DNA of 39,751 nucleotides from a phage. Of this stretch, positions 1,384 through 25,557 are shown one piece after another (position 1 is the stretch's first letter; each line of letters opens with the position of its first letter). Where the stretch lies: the sequence record PZ402302.1. The stretch is one strand, 5' to 3'. The position numbers and the translations under genes are program-made. The notes beneath the pieces are model-generated. The model searched no databases. It was not told where the DNA came from and saw only the letters and a list, made by a program, of their open reading frames with translations.

Positions 1384-3141
1384 ATGTCTACTCAAGCAAA
1401 CAAGAATGCGCTAATCATTGCGCAACTTAAGGGTGACTTCGTGGCCTTCCTGTTCGTCTTATGGAAGGCTCTGAACTTACCTAAACCAACCAAGTGTCAG
1501 ATTGATATGGCACGTACACTCGCTAATGGCGACCACAAGAAGTTTATCCTTCAGGCGTTCCGTGGTATCGGCAAGTCCTTTATCACCTGTGCGTTCGTCG
1601 TGTGGGTCTTATGGCGTGACCCTCAACTTAAGGTGCTCATCGTGTCTGCCTCCAAGGAACGTGCTGATGCTAACTCCATCTTCATCAAGAACATCATCGA
1701 CCTCCTTCCGTTCCTCTCTGAGTTAAAACCTCGACCGGGACAGCGAGACTCTGTGATTAGCTTCGACGTTGGCTTGGCTAAACCAGACCACTCACCCTCT
1801 GTGAAGTCTGTAGGTATCACTGGTCAGTTGACTGGTAGCCGTGCTGACATCATTATCGCAGATGACGTTGAGGTTCCCGGTAATAGCTCTACGAGTTCTG
1901 CCCGTGAGAAGCTCTGGACGTTGGTAACTGAGTTTGCTGCATTGCTTAAGCCACTGCCTACCTCTCGTGTTATCTACCTTGGTACACCTCAAACCGAGAT
2001 GACGCTCTACAAGGAACTTGAGGATAACAAAGGGTACAGCACAGTAATCTGGCCAGCACAGTATCCTCGTAATGATGCTGAGGCTCTCTACTATGGGGAC
2101 CGCTTGGCTCCGATGCTTAAGGCTGAATACGATGAAGGCTATGAGTTACTTCGTGGTCAACCTACTGACCCTGTTCGATTCGATATGGATGACCTCCGTG
2201 AGCGTGAACTCGAATACGGTAAAGCTGGCTACACTCTTCAGTTCATGCTTAACCCGAACCTTAGTGATGCCGAGAAGTACCCGCTACGGCTCCGTGACGC
2301 TATCGTGTGCGCAGTGGACACTGAACGTGCCCCATTGTCCTACCAGTGGTTGCCGAACCGTCAGAACCGCAATGAGGAACTTCCTAACGTGGGTCTGAAG
2401 GGTGACGACATTCACAGCTTCCATGTGTGTTCCTCTAAGACCGCTGAGTACCAGCAAAAGATTCTCGTCATTGACCCCTCTGGTCGTGGTAAGGATGAAA
2501 CAGGTTACGCAGTCCTCTACACCCTGAACGGCTACATCTACTTGATGGAGGTCGGTGGGTTCCGTGGTGGCTACGATGACCCTACCCTAGAGAAGCTCGC
2601 TAAGAAGGCCAAGCAGTGGAAGGTACAGACGGTCGTACACGAGAGTAACTTCGGTGATGGTATGTTCGGTAAGGTATTCTCTCCGGTTCTCCTGAAGCAC
2701 CACAAGTGTGCCTTAGAAGAGATTCGTGCTCGTGGCATGAAGGAGATGCGTATCTGCGATACTATCGAACCGTTGATGGGTGCACACCGCCTTATCATCC
2801 GTGACGAAGTAATCCGTGAGGACTACCAGACCGCTCGTGACCTCGATGGGAAGCATGATGTTCGCTACAGCGCGTTCTATCAGATGACCCGTATGACTCG
2901 TGAGAAGGGCGCTGTGGCACACGATGACCGACTTGATGCTATCGCATTGGGTATTGAGTTCCTTCGTGAAGGGATGCAGGTGGACTCTAAGGTTGGCGAG
3001 GAAGCTATGACCCTTGAGTTCCTTGAACACCACATGGAGAAACCTATCGTCGGTGGTGACATGGCTCGTGAGTTGGTGTCTGGAGGTGTGGACATCTACT
3101 ATGAGGATGACGGTGACGGAGAGTGCTTCATTGAGTGGTAG
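1384..3141 (+). CDS. 19: large terminase subunit / DNA maturase B (T7 gp19-like), 585 aa
   Basis: Length matches T7 gp19 (586 aa); [24 protein letters not shown]... and conserved blocks recalled from T7 gp19; RBS taggagg. Confidence 0.95.
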
Positions 3142-3228: not shown

Positions 3229-3251
3229 TAATACGACTCACTATTGGGAAG
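3229..3251 (+). promoter_or_regulatory. phage RNAP promoter (phiOR-like)
   Basis: taatacgactcactattgggaag; 17/17 T7-like core except T at -1; sits between gene 19 and 19.5 as phiOR does in T7. Confidence 0.85.
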
Positions 3252-5776: not shown

Positions 5777-5889
5777 ATCTAATTACATTTGACACTGGAG
5801 AATGCACAAAGTGAGCGCTAGCGACATTATGGGCGCTCTCTCTCTCTCTCTCCCTCTTAAAGTCAACTAACTAAATAGGACACAATCTA

Positions 5890-6987
5890 ATGAACTACAC
5901 CGACATTCAGGCACGTCTGGCAATCATCAAGTCTCTCCCGATTAGTGAACTGGACAAGCGCCAGCCTCTTCTGGTTGCACTGGCTGCTGACATCGTGAAC
6001 GGTGAGACAAGTGATGGCAACGATACTGATGGCTCAAATGGCTTGGAGTATCAAGACTGGTGGCACACATTGGGTGCACTAATGCGTGATGCAGGTTTCC
6101 GCATGTTAGGTAATGGTCACTTTAGCGCGGCCTACTCGCATGAACTGTTACCGGGTCGAGTCATCAAGGTTGGCTTTAAGAAAGAGGATTCAGGCGCTGC
6201 ATACACCGCATTCTGTAGGATGCACCAAGGTCGAGCGGGTATCCCTAACGTCTATCACGTAGCACGTCATGCAGGTTGCTACACGGTTGTTCTTGACAAG
6301 CTGTTAGCATGTGACCGCGATAATTATGACCATGAGGTATACGCTGACCTAGCACGTTACTTTGTGGAGTCGGATTGCCATGACGCAAGCGACTTTGCAC
6401 CGGGTGACTACGAGTTCATTGAGACCTGCCAGCTTATCCGCAAGTTCTTCAAAGGGATTGCATCGTTTGACATGCACAGCGGGAACATTATGTTCTCTGA
6501 AGATGGCACACCATACATCACTGACCCGGTTAGCTTCTCACATGACCGTGAACGTGAGGACGGCTTCCCTCTGGACCCGGATGCACTGATTGCCGAGGTC
6601 GAGGCAATAGCTAACGAGCGCATCATTGAACGTTGCCGCAACCGCAAGGCCAAGTGTGACCCTAACGGCTCCTTTCAGGTTAACCGCAAGGCCGCAATGA
6701 AACGCCGCAAGCGCAACCGCAAGTTACGTGCTAAACATGCAGCGGAAGGAATGCACCAGTTTGTCAAAGGGCGTCTTGAGCGTAGAGCTATTGACCGCAA
6801 CGAACGCCGTGCTGAGATGTTCATGGGGTCTGCATGGCGCGACTTTTGGTTACGCAACGGTAACGCAACGGTCCGCAAGATTGACCAAGTGAACGGCCTC
6901 AAGTGGCAACTAGGGGACCGCCTAGCAATCCAAGCGGGTCTACCTCTGAACATCGACAAGTTACTTGACGCACAACTGAAAGGCTGA
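5890..6987 (+). CDS. 0.7: serine/threonine protein kinase / host transcription shut-off protein (T7 gp0.7-like), 365 aa
   Basis: Conserved blocks LPICELDKRQ, MLGNGHFSAAYSH, RVIKVGFKKEDSGAAYTAFCRM, IASFDMHSGNIMFS, ITDPVSF shared with recalled T7 gp0.7; immediately upstream of gene 1. Confidence 0.9.
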   Translation: MNYTDIQARLAIIKSLPISELDKRQPLLVALAADIVNGETSDGNDTDGSNGLEYQDWWHTLGALMRDAGFRMLGNGHFSAAYSHELLPGRVIKVGFKKEDSGAAYTAFCRMHQGRAGIPNVYHVARHAGCYTVVLDKLLACDRDNYDHEVYADLARYFVESDCHDASDFAPGDYEFIETCQLIRKFFKGIASFDMHSGNIMFSEDGTPYITDPVSFSHDREREDGFPLDPDALIAEVEAIANERIIERCRNRKAKCDPNGSFQVNRKAAMKRRKRNRKLRAKHAAEGMHQFVKGRLERRAIDRNERRAEMFMGSAWRDFWLRNGNATVRKIDQVNGLKWQLGDRLAIQAGLPLNIDKLLDAQLKG

Positions 6988-7060: not shown

Positions 7061-9712
7061 ATGACTAACGTAATCAACGCACCAAAGAACGACTTCTCTG
7101 ACATCGCTAACGCAATCATGCCGTACAACATTCTGGCTGACCATTACGGTGCACAGCTTGCAGCTACGCAGTTACAGCTTGAGCACGAAGCGCACACTGA
7201 GGGTGAGAAGCGTTTTCTTAAGGCAATGGAACGTCAAATCAAAGCGGGTGAGTTCGGTGATAACGCAGTGGCTAAACCGCTCCTGTCATCTCTCGCACCG
7301 AAGTTTATCGAGGCGTGGAACACTTGGTTCACTGAAGTGGAAGCGAAGCGTGGCAAGCGTCCAGTGGCTTACAATCTGGTACAGAAGGTTGCACCTGAAG
7401 CTGCTGCATTCATCACACTGAAGGTCACGCTGGCTTGCTTGACGAAAGAAGAGTTCACCAACCTGCAATCGGTCGCTACTAAGATTGGTCGTAGCATTGA
7501 AGATGAACTGCGTTTTGGTCGCATCCGTGACGAAGAAGCGAAGCACTTTAAGAACCACGTACAGGAGGCACTGAACAAGCGCGTTGGCATCGTCTACAAG
7601 AAAGCATTCATGCAAGCCGTAGAGGGTAAGATGCTTGATGCTGGTCAACTGCAAACCAAGTGGACTACATGGACACCTGAAGAATCAATTCACGTTGGTG
7701 TGCGCATGTTGGAACTGCTCATCGGGTCTACTGGTCTCGTTGAGTTACACCGCCCGTTCGCTGGGAACATCGAGAAGGATGGCGAGTACATCCAGTTAAC
7801 AGAACAATATGTAGACCTGCTGTCTAAACGTGCTGGTGCACTGGCTGCAATCGCTCCGATGTATCAGCCTTGCGTGGTCCCTCCGAAGCCTTGGACTTCT
7901 CCGGTTGGTGGTGGCTATTGGGCGGCTGGTCGCAAGCCTCTCTCTCTGGTTCGTACTGGTAGCAAGAAGGGACTGGAACGTTACAACGATGTGTACATGC
8001 CTGAAGTTTACAAGGCGGTGAACATCGCACAGAATACTCCTTGGAAGATTAACAAGAAGGTTCTGGCAGTGGTCAACGAGATTGTGAACTGGAAGCATTG
8101 CCCGGTTGAAGATGTACCTGCTCTCGAACGTGGTGAACTGCCTGTCAAACCTGAAGACATCGACACGAACGAAGCGGCTCTGAAAGCGTGGAAGAAAGCG
8201 GCCTCCGCAATCTATCGCAAAGAGAAAGCACGAGTTTCTCGCCGCATGAGCATGGAGTTCATGTTAGGTCAGGCCAATAAGTTCGCACAGTTCAAAGCTA
8301 TCTGGTTCCCAATGAACATGGACTGGCGCGGTCGTGTGTATGCTGTGCCGATGTTTAACCCGCAAGGCAACGACATGACCAAAGGCTTGTTGACGCTCGC
8401 TAAAGGTAAACCAATTGGTGTCGATGGGTACTACTGGCTGAAGATTCATGGTGCAAACACTGCTGGCGTGGACAAGGTGGACTTTGCAGAACGCATCAAG
8501 TTCATTGATGACAACCATGAGAACATCATGAGCGTAGCTGCTGACCCGATTGCTAACACTTGGTGGGCCGAGCAAGACTCTCCGTTCTGCTTCCTCGCGT
8601 TCTGCTTCGAGTATGCAGGAGTCCAGCACCACGGAATGAACTACAACTGCTCTCTTCCGCTGGCGTTTGATGGTAGCTGCTCCGGTATTCAGCACTTCTC
8701 CGCAATGCTTCGTGATGAAATTGGCGGTCGCGCTGTTAACTTACTGCCGAGCAAGGAAGTCCAAGACATCTACCGCATCGTAGCGGAACGTGTCAACGAG
8801 ATTCTGAACCAAGATGTTATCAACGGGACCGACAACGAAGTAGAGACCGTGACCAACAAGGACACAGGGGAAATCACTGAGAAGCTCAAGCTGGGCACTA
8901 AAGAACTAGCTGGTCAGTGGCTGGCCTACGGTGTGACCCGCAAGGTCACTAAGCGTTCGGTTATGACGTTGGCTTACGGTTCCAAAGAGTACGGATTCCG
9001 TGACCAAGTTCTTGAGGATACCATTCAGCCAGCTATCGACGATGGCAAGGGCTTGATGTTCACTCAACCGAACCAAGCGGCTGGCTATATGGCTAAACTG
9101 ATTTGGAACGCGGTAACGGTGACAGTGGTCGCAGCGGTTGAAGCAATGAACTGGCTGAAGTCTGCGGCTAAACTTCTAGCTGCTGAAGTCAAGGACAAGA
9201 AGACCAAAGAGGTTCTCCGCAAGCGCTGCGCGGTACATTGGGTTACTCCTGATGGCTTCCCGGTCTGGCAGGAATACAAGAAGCCAGTACAGACCCGCTT
9301 GAACCTGATGTTCTTAGGCCAGATTCGTCTACAGCCTACCGTGAACACCAACAAGGATAGCGGAATTGATGCTCGTAAGCAGGAGTCAGGCATCGCACCT
9401 AACTTTGTCCACTCAATGGATGGAAGCCACCTGCGCATGACTGTGGTCCGCTCCAATGAGGTCTACGGTGTGGAATCGTTCGCACTGATTCACGACTCCT
9501 TTGGTACTATCCCTGCTGATGCTGGCAACCTGTTTAAAGCAGTGCGCGAAACGATGGTCAACACTTACGAAGAGAACGATGTACTAGCAGACTTCTATGA
9601 GCAATTTGCTGACCAGTTACATGAATCGCAGCTTGACAAGATGCCTGAGATGCCAGCTAAAGGTTCTCTGGACCTGCAAGAAATCCTTAAGTCAGACTTT
9701 GCGTTTGCCTAA
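7061..9712 (+). CDS. 1: single-subunit DNA-dependent RNA polymerase (T7 gene 1-like), 883 aa
   Basis: Same length as T7 RNAP; long identical stretches by recall (ACLTKEEF-type palm/fingers blocks, specificity-loop region PTVNTNKDSGIDARKQESGIAPNFVHS, C-terminus SDFAFA). Confidence 0.97.
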   Translation: MTNVINAPKNDFSDIANAIMPYNILADHYGAQLAATQLQLEHEAHTEGEKRFLKAMERQIKAGEFGDNAVAKPLLSSLAPKFIEAWNTWFTEVEAKRGKRPVAYNLVQKVAPEAAAFITLKVTLACLTKEEFTNLQSVATKIGRSIEDELRFGRIRDEEAKHFKNHVQEALNKRVGIVYKKAFMQAVEGKMLDAGQLQTKWTTWTPEESIHVGVRMLELLIGSTGLVELHRPFAGNIEKDGEYIQLTEQYVDLLSKRAGALAAIAPMYQPCVVPPKPWTSPVGGGYWAAGRKPLSLVRTGSKKGLERYNDVYMPEVYKAVNIAQNTPWKINKKVLAVVNEIVNWKHCPVEDVPALERGELPVKPEDIDTNEAALKAWKKAASAIYRKEKARVSRRMSMEFMLGQANKFAQFKAIWFPMNMDWRGRVYAVPMFNPQGNDMTKGLLTLAKGKPIGVDGYYWLKIHGANTAGVDKVDFAERIKFIDDNHENIMSVAADPIANTWWAEQDSPFCFLAFCFEYAGVQHHGMNYNCSLPLAFDGSCSGIQHFSAMLRDEIGGRAVNLLPSKEVQDIYRIVAERVNEILNQDVINGTDNEVETVTNKDTGEITEKLKLGTKELAGQWLAYGVTRKVTKRSVMTLAYGSKEYGFRDQVLEDTIQPAIDDGKGLMFTQPNQAAGYMAKLIWNAVTVTVVAAVEAMNWLKSAAKLLAAEVKDKKTKEVLRKRCAVHWVTPDGFPVWQEYKKPVQTRLNLMFLGQIRLQPTVNTNKDSGIDARKQESGIAPNFVHSMDGSHLRMTVVRSNEVYGVESFALIHDSFGTIPADAGNLFKAVRETMVNTYEENDVLADFYEQFADQLHESQLDKMPEMPAKGSLDLQEILKSDFAFA

Positions 9713-9719
9713 CGGAATC

Positions 9720-9742
9720 TAATACGACTCACTATTGGGAGA
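9720..9742 (+). promoter_or_regulatory. phage RNAP promoter (phi1.1A-like) with gene-10-like leader
   Basis: taatacgactcactattgggagaccc, then leader gggagacccttggggtttccc...tttaactttaagagga resembling the T7 phi10 leader. Confidence 0.9.
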
Positions 9743-9802
9743 CCCTTGGGGTTTCCCTACTTTAAGATAACTTTAAGTTTAACTTTAAGAGGAAACATAA
9801 TC

Positions 9803-10360
9803 ATGTTTACTTTCATCACTTCAGTAGGCGCTCTCGTAGCAACCATTCTTGCAGCAACATACTACAACCGTTCAAAAGTATTTCTCACCAAGCTAATCAA
9901 AGAAGAGAAGAACTCTCACGCACTCAAAGAGAGACTTGAAGATGGGTGGCGAGAGAAGCAGGAACTAGCTGGTCGAATCCGTACTTTAGAGTTCGAACAA
10001 CAATATGACATGTCGAACCAACGAGAACTCATTGAGCGTCTACGCGCTGAGGCAATGGAGTACCGCAAGGAACTTAAAGAGGCAAAGAGTACCATCCGTG
10101 AGTACACATACAGTGACATCACGTCTATCAAGTTTACTGCTCACATCCCAGATGCTGGATGGAAGCGCACTGAGTTCAAGCTAGGCATAGGGTCTTGCGG
10201 CAAAGAGGTTACGTGTTTGCACTGGAAAGAACAGTCGGACAGCTACCTGCTGACGCAGACGTGCACTGATGGTGAGCGCAAAGAGTTCACCTATTATAAG
10301 AAAGACGTAGCGGGTCGCATTGAGATTGCACGTAAGGTTGCAGACAATACGACTCACTAA
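9803..10360 (+). CDS. hypothetical membrane-anchored coiled-coil protein, 185 aa (inserted between phi1.1A and phi1.1B)
   Basis: ATG with RBS aagagga; N-terminal TM helix MFTFITSVGALVATILAATYY, about 80 aa charged heptad-rich segment, C-terminal domain with 3 Cys; own promoter upstream, phi1.1B overlaps its stop. Confidence 0.8.
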   Translation: MFTFITSVGALVATILAATYYNRSKVFLTKLIKEEKNSHALKERLEDGWREKQELAGRIRTLEFEQQYDMSNQRELIERLRAEAMEYRKELKEAKSTIREYTYSDITSIKFTAHIPDAGWKRTEFKLGIGSCGKEVTCLHWKEQSDSYLLTQTCTDGERKEFTYYKKDVAGRIEIARKVADNTTH

Positions 10361-10367
10361 TGGGAAA
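10345..10367 (+). promoter_or_regulatory. phage RNAP promoter (phi1.1B-like)
   Basis: caatacgactcactaatgggaaac. Confidence 0.8.
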
Positions 10368-10375
10368 CACTGAAA

Positions 10376-10420
10376 GTTAAACTCAAGGTCATCTACATGG
10401 TGGCCTTCATGATTAACTGT
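10376..10420 (+). promoter_or_regulatory. RNase III-type processing hairpin (R1.1-like)
   Basis: gttaaactcaaggtcatctacatggtggccttcatgattaac. Confidence 0.7.
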
Positions 10421-10449
10421 CAACGATACTACCAAGAGGAAATAACATT

Positions 10450-10599
10450 ATGCGTACCAACTTTGAACCAACCACTAAGCGCAACAACATCATCAATGAA
10501 CATGGTGCTGAATGGCAGGAACGTAAAGACCGCATGAAGAAACGTCACAAGACACAACGTGGCAACTCTGAGAAACGCAACTGGAAGGAGGCACTCTAA
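10450..10599 (+). CDS. 1.1: gp1.1-like small basic protein, 49 aa
   Basis: MRTNFEPTTKRNNIINEHGAEWQERKDRMKKRHKTQRGNSEKRNWKEAL; basic, resembles recalled T7 gp1.1; stop overlaps gene 1.2 start; hand-translated. Confidence 0.6.
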   Translation: MRTNFEPTTKRNNIINEHGAEWQERKDRMKKRHKTQRGNSEKRNWKEAL

Positions 10600-10871
10600 T
10601 GGGTCGCTTATACAGTGGCAACTTAATAGCATACAAAGACGCTATCGAACGGCTTAAAGAAGATCACGATGCAAATGTGTTCGTTGAGACTTATCGCTAT
10701 GAGGACTTCACACAGCGACGGATGGTCGCCGGAGAGACACTTCGAGTGGTCTTACGGGATGGCTTAATGCTGACCGCTAAGTGTTTCGAACAGGACGATG
10801 AAGACGTTCGTTGCAATGCACAGACTGAATGGCTTCGTAAGGTACACAACGCCCTGAAGCACTGGAAGTAA
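10599..10871 (+). CDS. 1.2: inhibitor of host dGTP triphosphohydrolase (T7 gp1.2-like), 90 aa
   Basis: MGRLYSGNLIAYKDA... and ...HNALKHWK match start and end of recalled T7 gp1.2. Confidence 0.8.
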   Translation: MGRLYSGNLIAYKDAIERLKEDHDANVFVETYRYEDFTQRRMVAGETLRVVLRDGLMLTAKCFEQDDEDVRCNAQTEWLRKVHNALKHWK

Positions 10872-10891
10872 TACGACTCACTATTGCGAGA
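10869..10891 (+). promoter_or_regulatory. phage RNAP promoter (phi1.3-like)
   Basis: taatacgactcactattgcgagagg (start region GCG rather than GGG). Confidence 0.75.
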
Positions 10892-10892
10892 G

Positions 10893-10935
10893 GTAAACTA
10901 AAGGTCATCTACACGGTGGCCTTTGTGATTAACTT
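10893..10935 (+). promoter_or_regulatory. RNase III-type processing hairpin (R1.3-like)
   Basis: taaactaaaggtcatctacacggtggcctttgtgattaac. Confidence 0.65.
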
Positions 10936-10976
10936 TTGCTTAAACATTAACCAATACACACTAAAGGAGTTCCATT

Positions 10977-12008
10977 ATGGAAATCACATTCAAGACTAAC
11001 CCATTCAAAGCAGTATCCTACGTTGAGTCTGCCATTAAGAAAGCACTCGACAAAGCTGGCTACCTGATTGCTGACACTAAGCATGATGGTGTACGTGGTA
11101 ACATCGTGGTTGACAATACGGCTGACTGCCTGTGGCTGTCCCGTGTCTCCAAGACCATCCCCGCGCTTGAGCACCTTAATGGGTTCGACCAACGCTGGGC
11201 TAATGTTCTCAAAGATGACCGCTGGATTTTCCCTGATGGCTTCATGCTGGATGGTGAACTGATGGTCAAAGGCGTAGACTTCAACACAGGGTCTGGCCTA
11301 CTGCGTACCAAGTGGCTCAAGAAGACAAACTGTGGATTTGATATTGGTGGAGTAGAGCCTCTCAAGGGGAGTAAAGTAGACTTCTGCTTAGACCCTAAGA
11401 AACTTAAGGTTGTCCTGTATGCCGCTATGCCGTATCACGATATGGTAGAAGGCAAAGAGTATGGCGTTATGTCCCTCCTGATGCAAGAGCATGTGCGTTC
11501 CCTCATTCCGGTTCTTAGTGAACACTTCCCGGAAATCACTTGGGAACTCTCTGAGGCCAAAGAAGTCTACGACATGGTAGAACTTCAGGAACTCTACGAG
11601 AAAGCCCGTGCCGATGGTCATGAAGGTCTGGTCGTCAAAGACCCGCTTGAAGTCTACAAGCGTGGCAAGAAGTCTGGCTGGTGGAAGATGAAGCCTGAGA
11701 ATGAAGCTGATGGTATTATCGTTGGCCTCAATTGGGGTACTCCGGGTCTGGCTAATGAAGGTAAAGTTATTGGCTTCGAGGTTCTCTTGGAGTCCGGTCG
11801 TGTAGTCTCTGCCAACAACATTAGCCAAGCGTTGATGGATGAGTTCACTGCTGCCGTCAAACATGCTGAGTCTGTGGGTATGGGTATGCCGTACACTGGC
11901 TTCGCCTGTCAGGTTGCCTACATGGAGGAAACTCCAGACGGTTCTCTGCGTCACCCATCGTTCGTTATGTTCCGTGGAACTGAGGATAACCCAAAGGAGA
12001 AAATGTAA
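10977..12008 (+). CDS. 1.3: ATP-dependent DNA ligase (T7 gp1.3-like), 343 aa
   Basis: Adenylation motif KHDGVRG; blocks TNPFKAVSYVESAIKKALD, WLSRVSKTIPALEHLNGFD, EGLVVKDP, SLRHPSFVMFRGTEDNP match recalled T7 ligase. Confidence 0.95.
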   Translation: MEITFKTNPFKAVSYVESAIKKALDKAGYLIADTKHDGVRGNIVVDNTADCLWLSRVSKTIPALEHLNGFDQRWANVLKDDRWIFPDGFMLDGELMVKGVDFNTGSGLLRTKWLKKTNCGFDIGGVEPLKGSKVDFCLDPKKLKVVLYAAMPYHDMVEGKEYGVMSLLMQEHVRSLIPVLSEHFPEITWELSEAKEVYDMVELQELYEKARADGHEGLVVKDPLEVYKRGKKSGWWKMKPENEADGIIVGLNWGTPGLANEGKVIGFEVLLESGRVVSANNISQALMDEFTAAVKHAESVGMGMPYTGFACQVAYMEETPDGSLRHPSFVMFRGTEDNPKEKM

Positions 12009-12198: not shown

Positions 12199-12231
12199 GG
12201 TCAGTCCTTAACGGGCTGGCCTTTTTGTGTT
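12199..12231 (+). terminator. intrinsic terminator for host RNAP (TE-like)
   Basis: ggtcagtcc-ttaac-gggctggcc stem (9 bp, two G-U pairs) followed by tttttgtgtttc; after the ligase region as T7 TE. Confidence 0.7.
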
Positions 12232-12232
12232 T

Positions 12233-12255
12233 CTATACGACTCACTATGGAGGAA
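12233..12255 (+). promoter_or_regulatory. phage RNAP promoter (phi1.5-like, variant)
   Basis: ctatacgactcactatggaggaac: core ACGACTCACTAT present, one base shorter before the start region. Confidence 0.6.
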
Positions 12256-12262
12256 CTACCTC

Positions 12263-12343
12263 ATGCTATTTCTAATTGCTGCTGCTATCTTTGCCACGTT
12301 TGCCTTCGTTATCATTGACGACAACTGCTGGCCGGATTGCTAA
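12263..12343 (+). CDS. tiny hydrophobic peptide, 26 aa (gene 1.5 position)
   Basis: MLFLIAAAIFATFAFVIIDDNCWPDC; preceded by ggagga; sits exactly between two phage promoters; hand-translated. Confidence 0.4.
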   Translation: MLFLIAAAIFATFAFVIIDDNCWPDC

Positions 12344-25534: not shown

Positions 25535-25557
25535 TAATACGACTCACTATTGGGAGA
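25535..25557 (+). promoter_or_regulatory. phage RNAP promoter (phi10-like, class III)
   Basis: ttaatacgactcactattgggagagag: full consensus. Confidence 0.9.

Follow-up and report, generated by a model that had tools for sequence, protein, structure and literature searches.

The phages of the T7 group are the best mapped, yet one of their genes, gene 1.05, has no assigned function, though it is strongly conserved and probably highly expressed. Hundreds of phages of Klebsiella, Salmonella, Yersinia, and E. coli have the gene, and some of them were isolated as candidates for therapy or biocontrol. It is annotated in T3, BA14, Kvp1, 285P, K11, and phiSG-JL2, and the matching Pfam family, PF25755 (Phage_T3_1_05), is named for the "Enterobacteria phage T3 gene 1.05 protein". 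The products differ in architecture. In K11 and phiSG-JL2, as in the copy described here, the protein has a transmembrane (TM) segment, a coiled coil, and a C-terminal domain, whereas T3 and AP5 gp1.05 consist of a 90-aa domain alone, with no anchor or stalk. A literature search found no functional study of gene 1.05 or PF25755, and the annotation tables of the genome papers give "hypothetical".

Proteins outside the family offer comparisons of layout. The p16.7 protein of Bacillus phage phi29 is a small, early, membrane-anchored organiser of phage DNA replication that forms an oligomer at the membrane; it contains an N-terminal TM segment, a coiled coil, and a cytoplasmic, helical C-domain that binds DNA and the terminal protein. 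The layout predicted for the gene 1.05 product (TM segment, coiled coil, and cytoplasmic C-terminal domain) matches that of p16.7, but this is an analogy of layout only; the two have no sequence or fold relation, and the gene 1.05 head is all-beta. The i-spanins, such as lambda Rz and T7 gp18.5, are likewise small phage proteins with an N-terminal TM segment and a long coiled coil. However, the orientation that the positive-inside rule predicts for the gene 1.05 product is the opposite one, and gene 1.05 lies outside the lysis cassette, with no accompanying o-spanin ORF. Finally, E. coli ZipA is a bitopic protein whose N-terminus is out and C-terminus in (N-out/C-in), with a very short periplasmic N-terminus, one TM segment, and a cytoplasmic, partner-binding C-terminal domain. 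Its rare topology is the one predicted for the gene 1.05 product, with no homology between the two, and the flexible, P/Q-rich linker of ZipA is replaced by a coiled coil. For the head by itself, small beta-barrels such as those of Sm/Hfq, WYL, and SspB are a possible structural comparison.

The stretch of DNA analysed here (the window; 39,751 nucleotides, PZ402302.1) contains the whole genome of a T7-group phage in circularly permuted form. The first promoter belonging to the left end of the genome is at 3229. The following genes serve as landmarks:

1384-3141: terminase large subunit
7061-9712: gene 1, RNA polymerase
10977-12008: DNA ligase

Between gene 1 and gene 1.1 lies an ORF of 185 aa bracketed by two phage RNA polymerase (RNAP) promoters, as had been described in a preliminary description of this locus. 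The elements of the region are:

9720-9742, + strand: phage RNAP promoter phi1.05, TAATACGACTCACTATTGGGAGA, which departs from the T7 consensus at one position; the G at 9737 is +1
9737-9757, + strand: stem-loop at the 5' end of the transcript, GGGAGACCCTTGGGGTTTCCC, resembling that of phi10 leaders; the MFE and centroid folds agree on a stem of 9 bp
9758-9802, + strand: leader, 78% A+T, with ACTTTAAG present three times (9759, 9770, 9782) and the SD sequence AAGAGGA at 9787-9793
9803-10360, + strand: gene 1.05 CDS, 185 aa plus stop, 94.6% identical to BA14 gp1.05 and under purifying selection
10345-10367, + strand: phage RNAP promoter phi1.1, CAATACGACTCACTAATGGGAAA, the homologue of T7 phi1.1A, annotated as phi1.1 in BA14 and Kvp1
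10376-10417, + strand: stem-loop homologous, by fold and alignment, to the RNase III site R1.1 of T7/T3

The program-made list of ORFs begins this ORF at a TTG (9746-10360). The start of every homologue, however, aligns with the ATG at 9803, which gives the 185-aa product and is preceded by the AAGAGGA at 9787-9793. Over the 751 bases surrounding the ORF, DNA identity is 99% with Escherichia phage nasanit and 92-97% with ErnstBeyeler, PhiV-1, P483, 285P, BA14, and Kvp1, all of which are Berlinvirus. In the annotations of BA14 and Kvp1 this very ORF is gene 1.05 and the flanking promoters are phi1.05 and phi1.1; BA14 gp1.05, at the equivalent locus between gene 1 and gene 1.1, has 95% protein identity to the product described here. 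Residues 106-176 match PF25755 (profile positions 2-72 of 73) at 101.8 bits, with a cut-off of 27 and an E value of 2e-29, and the locus has the order expected of the family, that is, gene 1 RNA polymerase, phi1.05, gene 1.05, phi1.1, and gene 1.1. T3, K11, and phiSG-JL2 share this arrangement. By its sequence, then, the gene is not new but the previously annotated gene 1.05, in a T7-group Berlinvirus of the BA14/Kvp1 type; the insertion proposed in the preliminary description has in fact long been annotated in T3, BA14, Kvp1, 285P, K11, and phiSG-JL2. The comparison of the gene 1 to gene 1.1 interval that had been suggested finds gene 1.05 in T3, BA14, Kvp1, K11, and phiSG-JL2 and finds it absent from T7. 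Although the family is known, no functionally characterised member was found. Whole-protein matches to PHROG 8103 (E 9e-61) and PHROG 6440 both lead to groups with no assigned function, PADLOC and NCBIfam give no matches, and a search of PDB sequences with the single sequence and with a profile returns nothing below E 0.4. What is added here is a corrected promoter homology, a three-grade architecture for the family, a likely inside-facing topology, module exchange at a domain junction, and the deletion in phage P151.

The promoters upstream and downstream of gene 1.05 belong to a set that is readily recognized in the window. A scan with the T7 promoter consensus, allowing up to 3 mismatches, finds 6 sites in the window and 0 in 100 shuffles, and a looser scan finds about 15 promoters. 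The upstream promoter corresponds to the phi1.05 annotated at the equivalent place in BA14, Kvp1, and K11. Its 23-mer, TAATACGACTCACTATTGGGAGA, recurs exactly at 25535-25557, downstream of a gene whose product starts MAGESNADV. We take this gene to be gene 9, and for that reason the second copy is presumably phi10, the promoter of the capsid gene. The leader that follows phi1.05 also resembles that of phi10: it aligns with the T7 phi10 leader over the stem-loop (GGGAGACC...GGTTTCCC), then GTTTAACTTTAAGA, and then the SD, in agreement with the phi10-like leader and ribosome binding site that had been reported. Judged from the consensus promoter and the phi10-type leader, gene 1.05 is most likely a strongly expressed class II gene, which is also what had been proposed. 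In T3 and phiSG-JL2 a replication origin (rep_origin) is annotated at and just downstream of phi1.05 and into the start of gene 1.05, and that of phiSG-JL2 spans the phi1.05 promoter itself. Because these origins are annotated at the equivalent place, the A+T-rich leader at 9758-9802 probably belongs to the primary replication origin as well. A search of Rfam over 9500-11000 yields no RNA family.

The two +1 sites are 625 bp apart, as compared to 75 bp for T7 phi1.1A and phi1.1B. This difference in spacing, noted in the preliminary description, is real, but the two pairs of promoters are not equivalent. The downstream promoter (10345-10367) and the stem-loop at 10376-10417 align base-for-base with phi1.1A and R1.1 of T7 and with phi1.1 and R1.1 of T3, and a promoter scan between R1.1 and gene 1.1 of the window finds none, so there is no equivalent of phi1.1B. 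Thus, the gene 1.05 cassette sits between gene 1 and the equivalent of phi1.1A and not, as had been thought, between phi1.1A and phi1.1B. In T7 (5831-5923) the order is phi1.1A, R1.1, phi1.1B, and an A+T-rich leader, with no gene 1.05; in the window (10345-10450 compared) it is phi1.05, the A+T-rich leader, gene 1.05, phi1.1, and R1.1. Since GTTTAACTTTAAGA consequently lies on opposite sides of R1.1 in T7 and in the window, a rearrangement is needed to relate the two, rather than a simple insertion or deletion. The gene and its downstream promoter also overlap: at 10343-10367 the last codons of gene 1.05, D-N-T-T-H-stop, form the upstream part of phi1.1 (-17 to -2). The N-T-T-H-stop ending is conserved among phages with T7-type promoters, and in AlphaFold these residues are disordered, with pLDDT below 50. 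Given the overlap, the conserved "NTTH" C-terminus reflects promoter sequence and not protein function.

The product of gene 1.05 can be divided into three parts:

9803-9868, + strand: N-terminal TM anchor, codons 1-22, predicted N-out/C-in from hydropathy and flanking charges
9875-10108, + strand: coiled-coil stalk, codons 25-102
10118-10333, + strand: six-strand small beta domain of PF25755 (the head), codons 106-177, with a FKLGxGxCG loop and a GRIE motif

Residues 1-19 have a Kyte-Doolittle mean of 1.88. An AlphaFold model built from an alignment of 24 sequences (mean pLDDT 88) predicts a continuous helix over residues 2-102, with pLDDT 85-95 over most of its length, followed by six strands over residues 106-177; when modelled alone, the beta domain has a pLDDT of 89 and a pTM of 0.74. 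Residues 25-103 have a hydrophobic periodicity of 3.5 residues (p = 0.009), and the same periodicity is found in 51 of 81 long relatives. In the segment from 74 to 101 all of the a/d positions (8/8) are hydrophobic, a result equalled in 3 of 2000 shuffles. The model and the heptad periodicity are thus in line with the N-terminal membrane helix and coiled coil that the preliminary description had predicted.

The head contains the most conserved residues. G-x-G-x-C-G, a Q, and F-x-Y are invariant in the family, a G-R is nearly so, and the window protein has the whole series, FKLGxGxCG ... Q ... F-x-Y ... GRIE. The C-terminal domain had been described as having three Cys, and three are indeed present (132, 138, and 154), but they are not a trait of the family: in its alignments C132 alone is invariant, while C138 and C154 vary. 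This rules out a conserved Cys cluster of the kind that would form a disulfide or a zinc site. A P-loop in GIGSCGK is also ruled out, since the Lys is not conserved (K11 has GPCGLH). Across the family, the PF25755 domains have a median net charge of 0 to +1 and a median pI of 7.1-7.7; with a domain that is about neutral, nucleic-acid binding finds no support from charge. Similarity of the head to bacterial Ig-like repeats is weak. The Pfam Big_13 (PF19077) HMM matches neither the protein nor 38 relatives, and the weak matches to huge PKD/Big_13 repeat proteins arise from summed repeats of a beta-hairpin motif, F.YY..D.AGN.E, with at most 16 bits per domain. An hhalign comparison does give a suggestive probability of 77% and E 2e-5 over 78 columns, although the Big_13 repeats used were picked from the query's own weak matches and the comparison is biased accordingly.

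A survey of the family by word-indexed, profile, and exhaustive representative searches collected 186 proteins with G-x-G-x-C-G. These fall into three classes:

74 of 186: N-terminal TM segment, linker, and domain
24 of 186: linker (mostly heptad-rich) and domain, with no TM segment
88 of 186: domain only, 75-100 aa

The 112 relatives that have neither an anchor nor a signal sequence include T3 gp1.05 (90 aa). Among the anchored relatives the TM segment starts at residues 1-7 in all but two. No K or R precedes it in 72 of these 74 proteins, nor in the window protein, and 3-4 K/R come after it; among the anchored relatives the 15 residues that follow average 3.1 K/R. For such a distribution the positive-inside rule predicts an outside N-terminus, with stalk and head cytoplasmic, and the many relatives that lack an anchor or signal sequence likewise argue that the head works in the cytoplasm. 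Taking the rule and the family architecture together, the gene 1.05 product is probably N-out, with stalk and head in the cytoplasm, the opposite of a spanin. The window does encode separate, real spanins, as had been stated:

366-809: i-spanin, with K3 and K6 before its TM segment and an embedded lipobox ORF at 406-735

In the alternative frames of gene 1.05 there is no lipobox ORF and hence no embedded or adjacent o-spanin, and no spanin family occurs among the Pfam, PHROG, and NCBIfam matches of the protein. The spanin-like type II topology of the preliminary description is therefore not retained, given the charges around the TM segment in the anchored relatives and the 112 relatives that have no anchor.

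Homologues were detected by tblastn in 575 phage records, mostly Klebsiella phages of the K11/KP32 type, and in 97 of these at least 80% of the protein is covered. The family is also found at other genome positions in other Autographiviridae; outside the Studiervirinae it is the domain-only form that is present, among early or DNA-metabolism genes. A search of 185,579 species genomes finds the PF25755 domain at just 2 loci, one on a 549-bp contig and the other in a cluster of phage-type DNA-replication genes, and plasmids and complete E. coli genomes yield none. The domain is essentially confined to T7-like phages.

The head and the N-terminal part of the protein differ in their histories. In a codon comparison with six related phages, the head has a dN/dS of about 0.04-0.1 at a dS of 0.13-1.2. 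The N-terminal part has a dN/dS of about 0.09-0.13 within one allele type, whereas against Carena, JSS1, and BP12A it is saturated (dS about 2, dN 0.8-0.9). The comparison with Carena is the clearest: the head has a dS of 0.13, and the N-terminal part has a dS of about 2.1 and a dN of 0.87. A saturated N-terminal part joined to a head that has diverged little indicates that the anchor and stalk have been swapped by recombination at the domain junction. The N-module allele of the window copy is present in 24 Berlinvirus records, always in gene 1.05, and was not found fused to other heads. The gene is dispensable, since T7 lacks it altogether and Escherichia phage P151 (PP083182, 1501-1840) lacks the beta domain, which has been deleted between two AGRI-encoding stretches, with the rest frameshifted. 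An in-frame version of this type of deletion also occurs in metagenomes (protein P0032). The absence of the gene from T7 and the loss of the head in P151 bear out the suggestion that this is a dispensable accessory region.

A mechanism that would fit these features, and that we favour tentatively with slightly less than even confidence, is that the protein presents a cytoplasmic binding head that is oligomerised and pinned to the inner membrane, where it sequesters or relocalises a partner, and that it does so as the product of a non-essential class II gene. The phage RNAP would transcribe gene 1.05 from its consensus promoter, and the protein would be abundant from early-middle infection. The product would be a single-pass inner-membrane protein whose extreme N-terminus is periplasmic and whose remainder is cytoplasmic. 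Following an anchor of ~22 residues, a coiled-coil stalk of ~80 residues would oligomerise and would carry the 72-residue PF25755 head. Because the head is nearly invariant, is under purifying selection, and stands alone in about half of the family, it would be the working part, with the stalk and anchor as exchangeable additions that increase its avidity and hold it against the cytoplasmic side of the membrane. During host takeover, the head may bind and sequester or relocalise a conserved cytoplasmic partner, and candidates for this partner include a host factor or a component of phage replication or transcription. Since the domain is almost neutral in charge, a protein is a more likely partner than nucleic acid. 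A role in host takeover also fits the neighbourhood, which holds small inhibitors of host factors such as gp1.2, an inhibitor of dGTPase. Two features count against this mechanism: the weak Big_13 similarity, if real, would be a better fit to an extracytoplasmic domain, as these bacterial Ig-like domains are extracellular, and the invariant Cys, placed in a loop rich in Gly, might point to a catalytic or metal-binding function and not to binding alone.

In an extension of this mechanism, which is possible but rather doubtful, the PF25755 head would be a hitherto unrecognised binding module, peculiar to T7-like phages, that serves host takeover or anti-defence and is deployed in three grades: free, as a coiled-coil oligomer, and as a membrane-tethered oligomer. 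The tethered form of Berlinvirus would then pull a conserved cytoplasmic factor, of host or phage origin, onto the inner membrane, and exchange of the anchor plus stalk would adjust the site and the strength of trapping. A conserved cytoplasmic head with an optional anchor and stalk would make the 72-residue domain the part to purify, and its partner would be sought in the cytoplasm or at the inner face of the membrane, not in the periplasm. If the partner proves to be a defence or replication factor, gene 1.05 would define a new family of small inhibitors or organisers; otherwise, it would be one more catalogued accessory gene.

Several other explanations must be weighed against a membrane-pinned binding head. 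The protein could be an organiser of replication or transcription similar to phi29 p16.7, in which the head binds phage DNA, RNA, or a replisome component and tethers genomes to the membrane. The predicted layout and early expression would agree with such a role, as would the position of the gene start, which in T3 and phiSG-JL2 lies within or beside the annotated primary origin, and the constant presence of the gene in DNA-metabolism modules. We nevertheless regard it as unlikely: the charge of the domain is close to neutral and not basic in any consistent way, its fold is beta and that of the p16.7 C-domain helical, an anchor is missing from half of the family, and T7 replicates well without the gene. 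Another idea is an envelope protein of type II topology (N-in/C-out) whose coiled coil and Cys domain are periplasmic and which might be spanin-like or act in superinfection exclusion or envelope remodelling. An N-terminal TM segment followed by a coiled coil is superficially like an i-spanin, the window copy does have three Cys, and the head may be weakly related to extracellular bacterial Ig-like repeats. Yet the charge distribution is opposite to that of the window's real i-spanin, both anchor and signal are missing in 112 of 186 relatives, and the single invariant Cys means that there is no conserved disulfide pair. In addition, no lipoprotein ORF is embedded or adjacent, there is no Pfam spanin match, and the gene is in the class II region, outside the lysis cassette. 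This makes an envelope role quite unlikely.

That one invariant Cys, which is part of an equally invariant loop rich in Gly and has conserved Q, K, F/Y, and GRIE in its vicinity, speaks for the proposal that the head is an enzyme or a binder of a small molecule or metal, with the GxGxCG Cys as the active or ligand site; such a head might, for example, act as a sponge that takes up a host immune signal, or have a thiol-dependent activity. For a domain of this small size, conservation is very strong. However, searches revealed no similarity to a known enzyme or sponge family, a barrel of 72 residues is small for catalysis, and a membrane tether would be unusual for a sponge, so that we consider this proposal very unlikely. 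There is, lastly, the explanation that the ORF is incidental and that the region matters only for its promoters and replication origin. The region does contain two promoters, an origin-like A+T-rich leader, and an RNase III-type stem-loop, but a dN/dS far below 1 at substantial synonymous divergence effectively refutes an incidental ORF. The homologues in 575 phage records, including the 97 with coverage of at least 80%, the confident predicted fold, and the occurrence of the family at other genome positions in other Autographiviridae also stand against it, leaving a negligible chance that the gene 1.05 product is not a selected protein at all.

In the interval 12231-12343 of the window, a further small ORF, of 38 aa, begins within about 10 bases after a promoter-like site, TATACGACTCACTATGGAGG. 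The product has a strongly hydrophobic core, MFLYDSLWRNYLMLFLIAAAIFATFAFVIIDDNCWPDC, and is possibly another small class II membrane protein.
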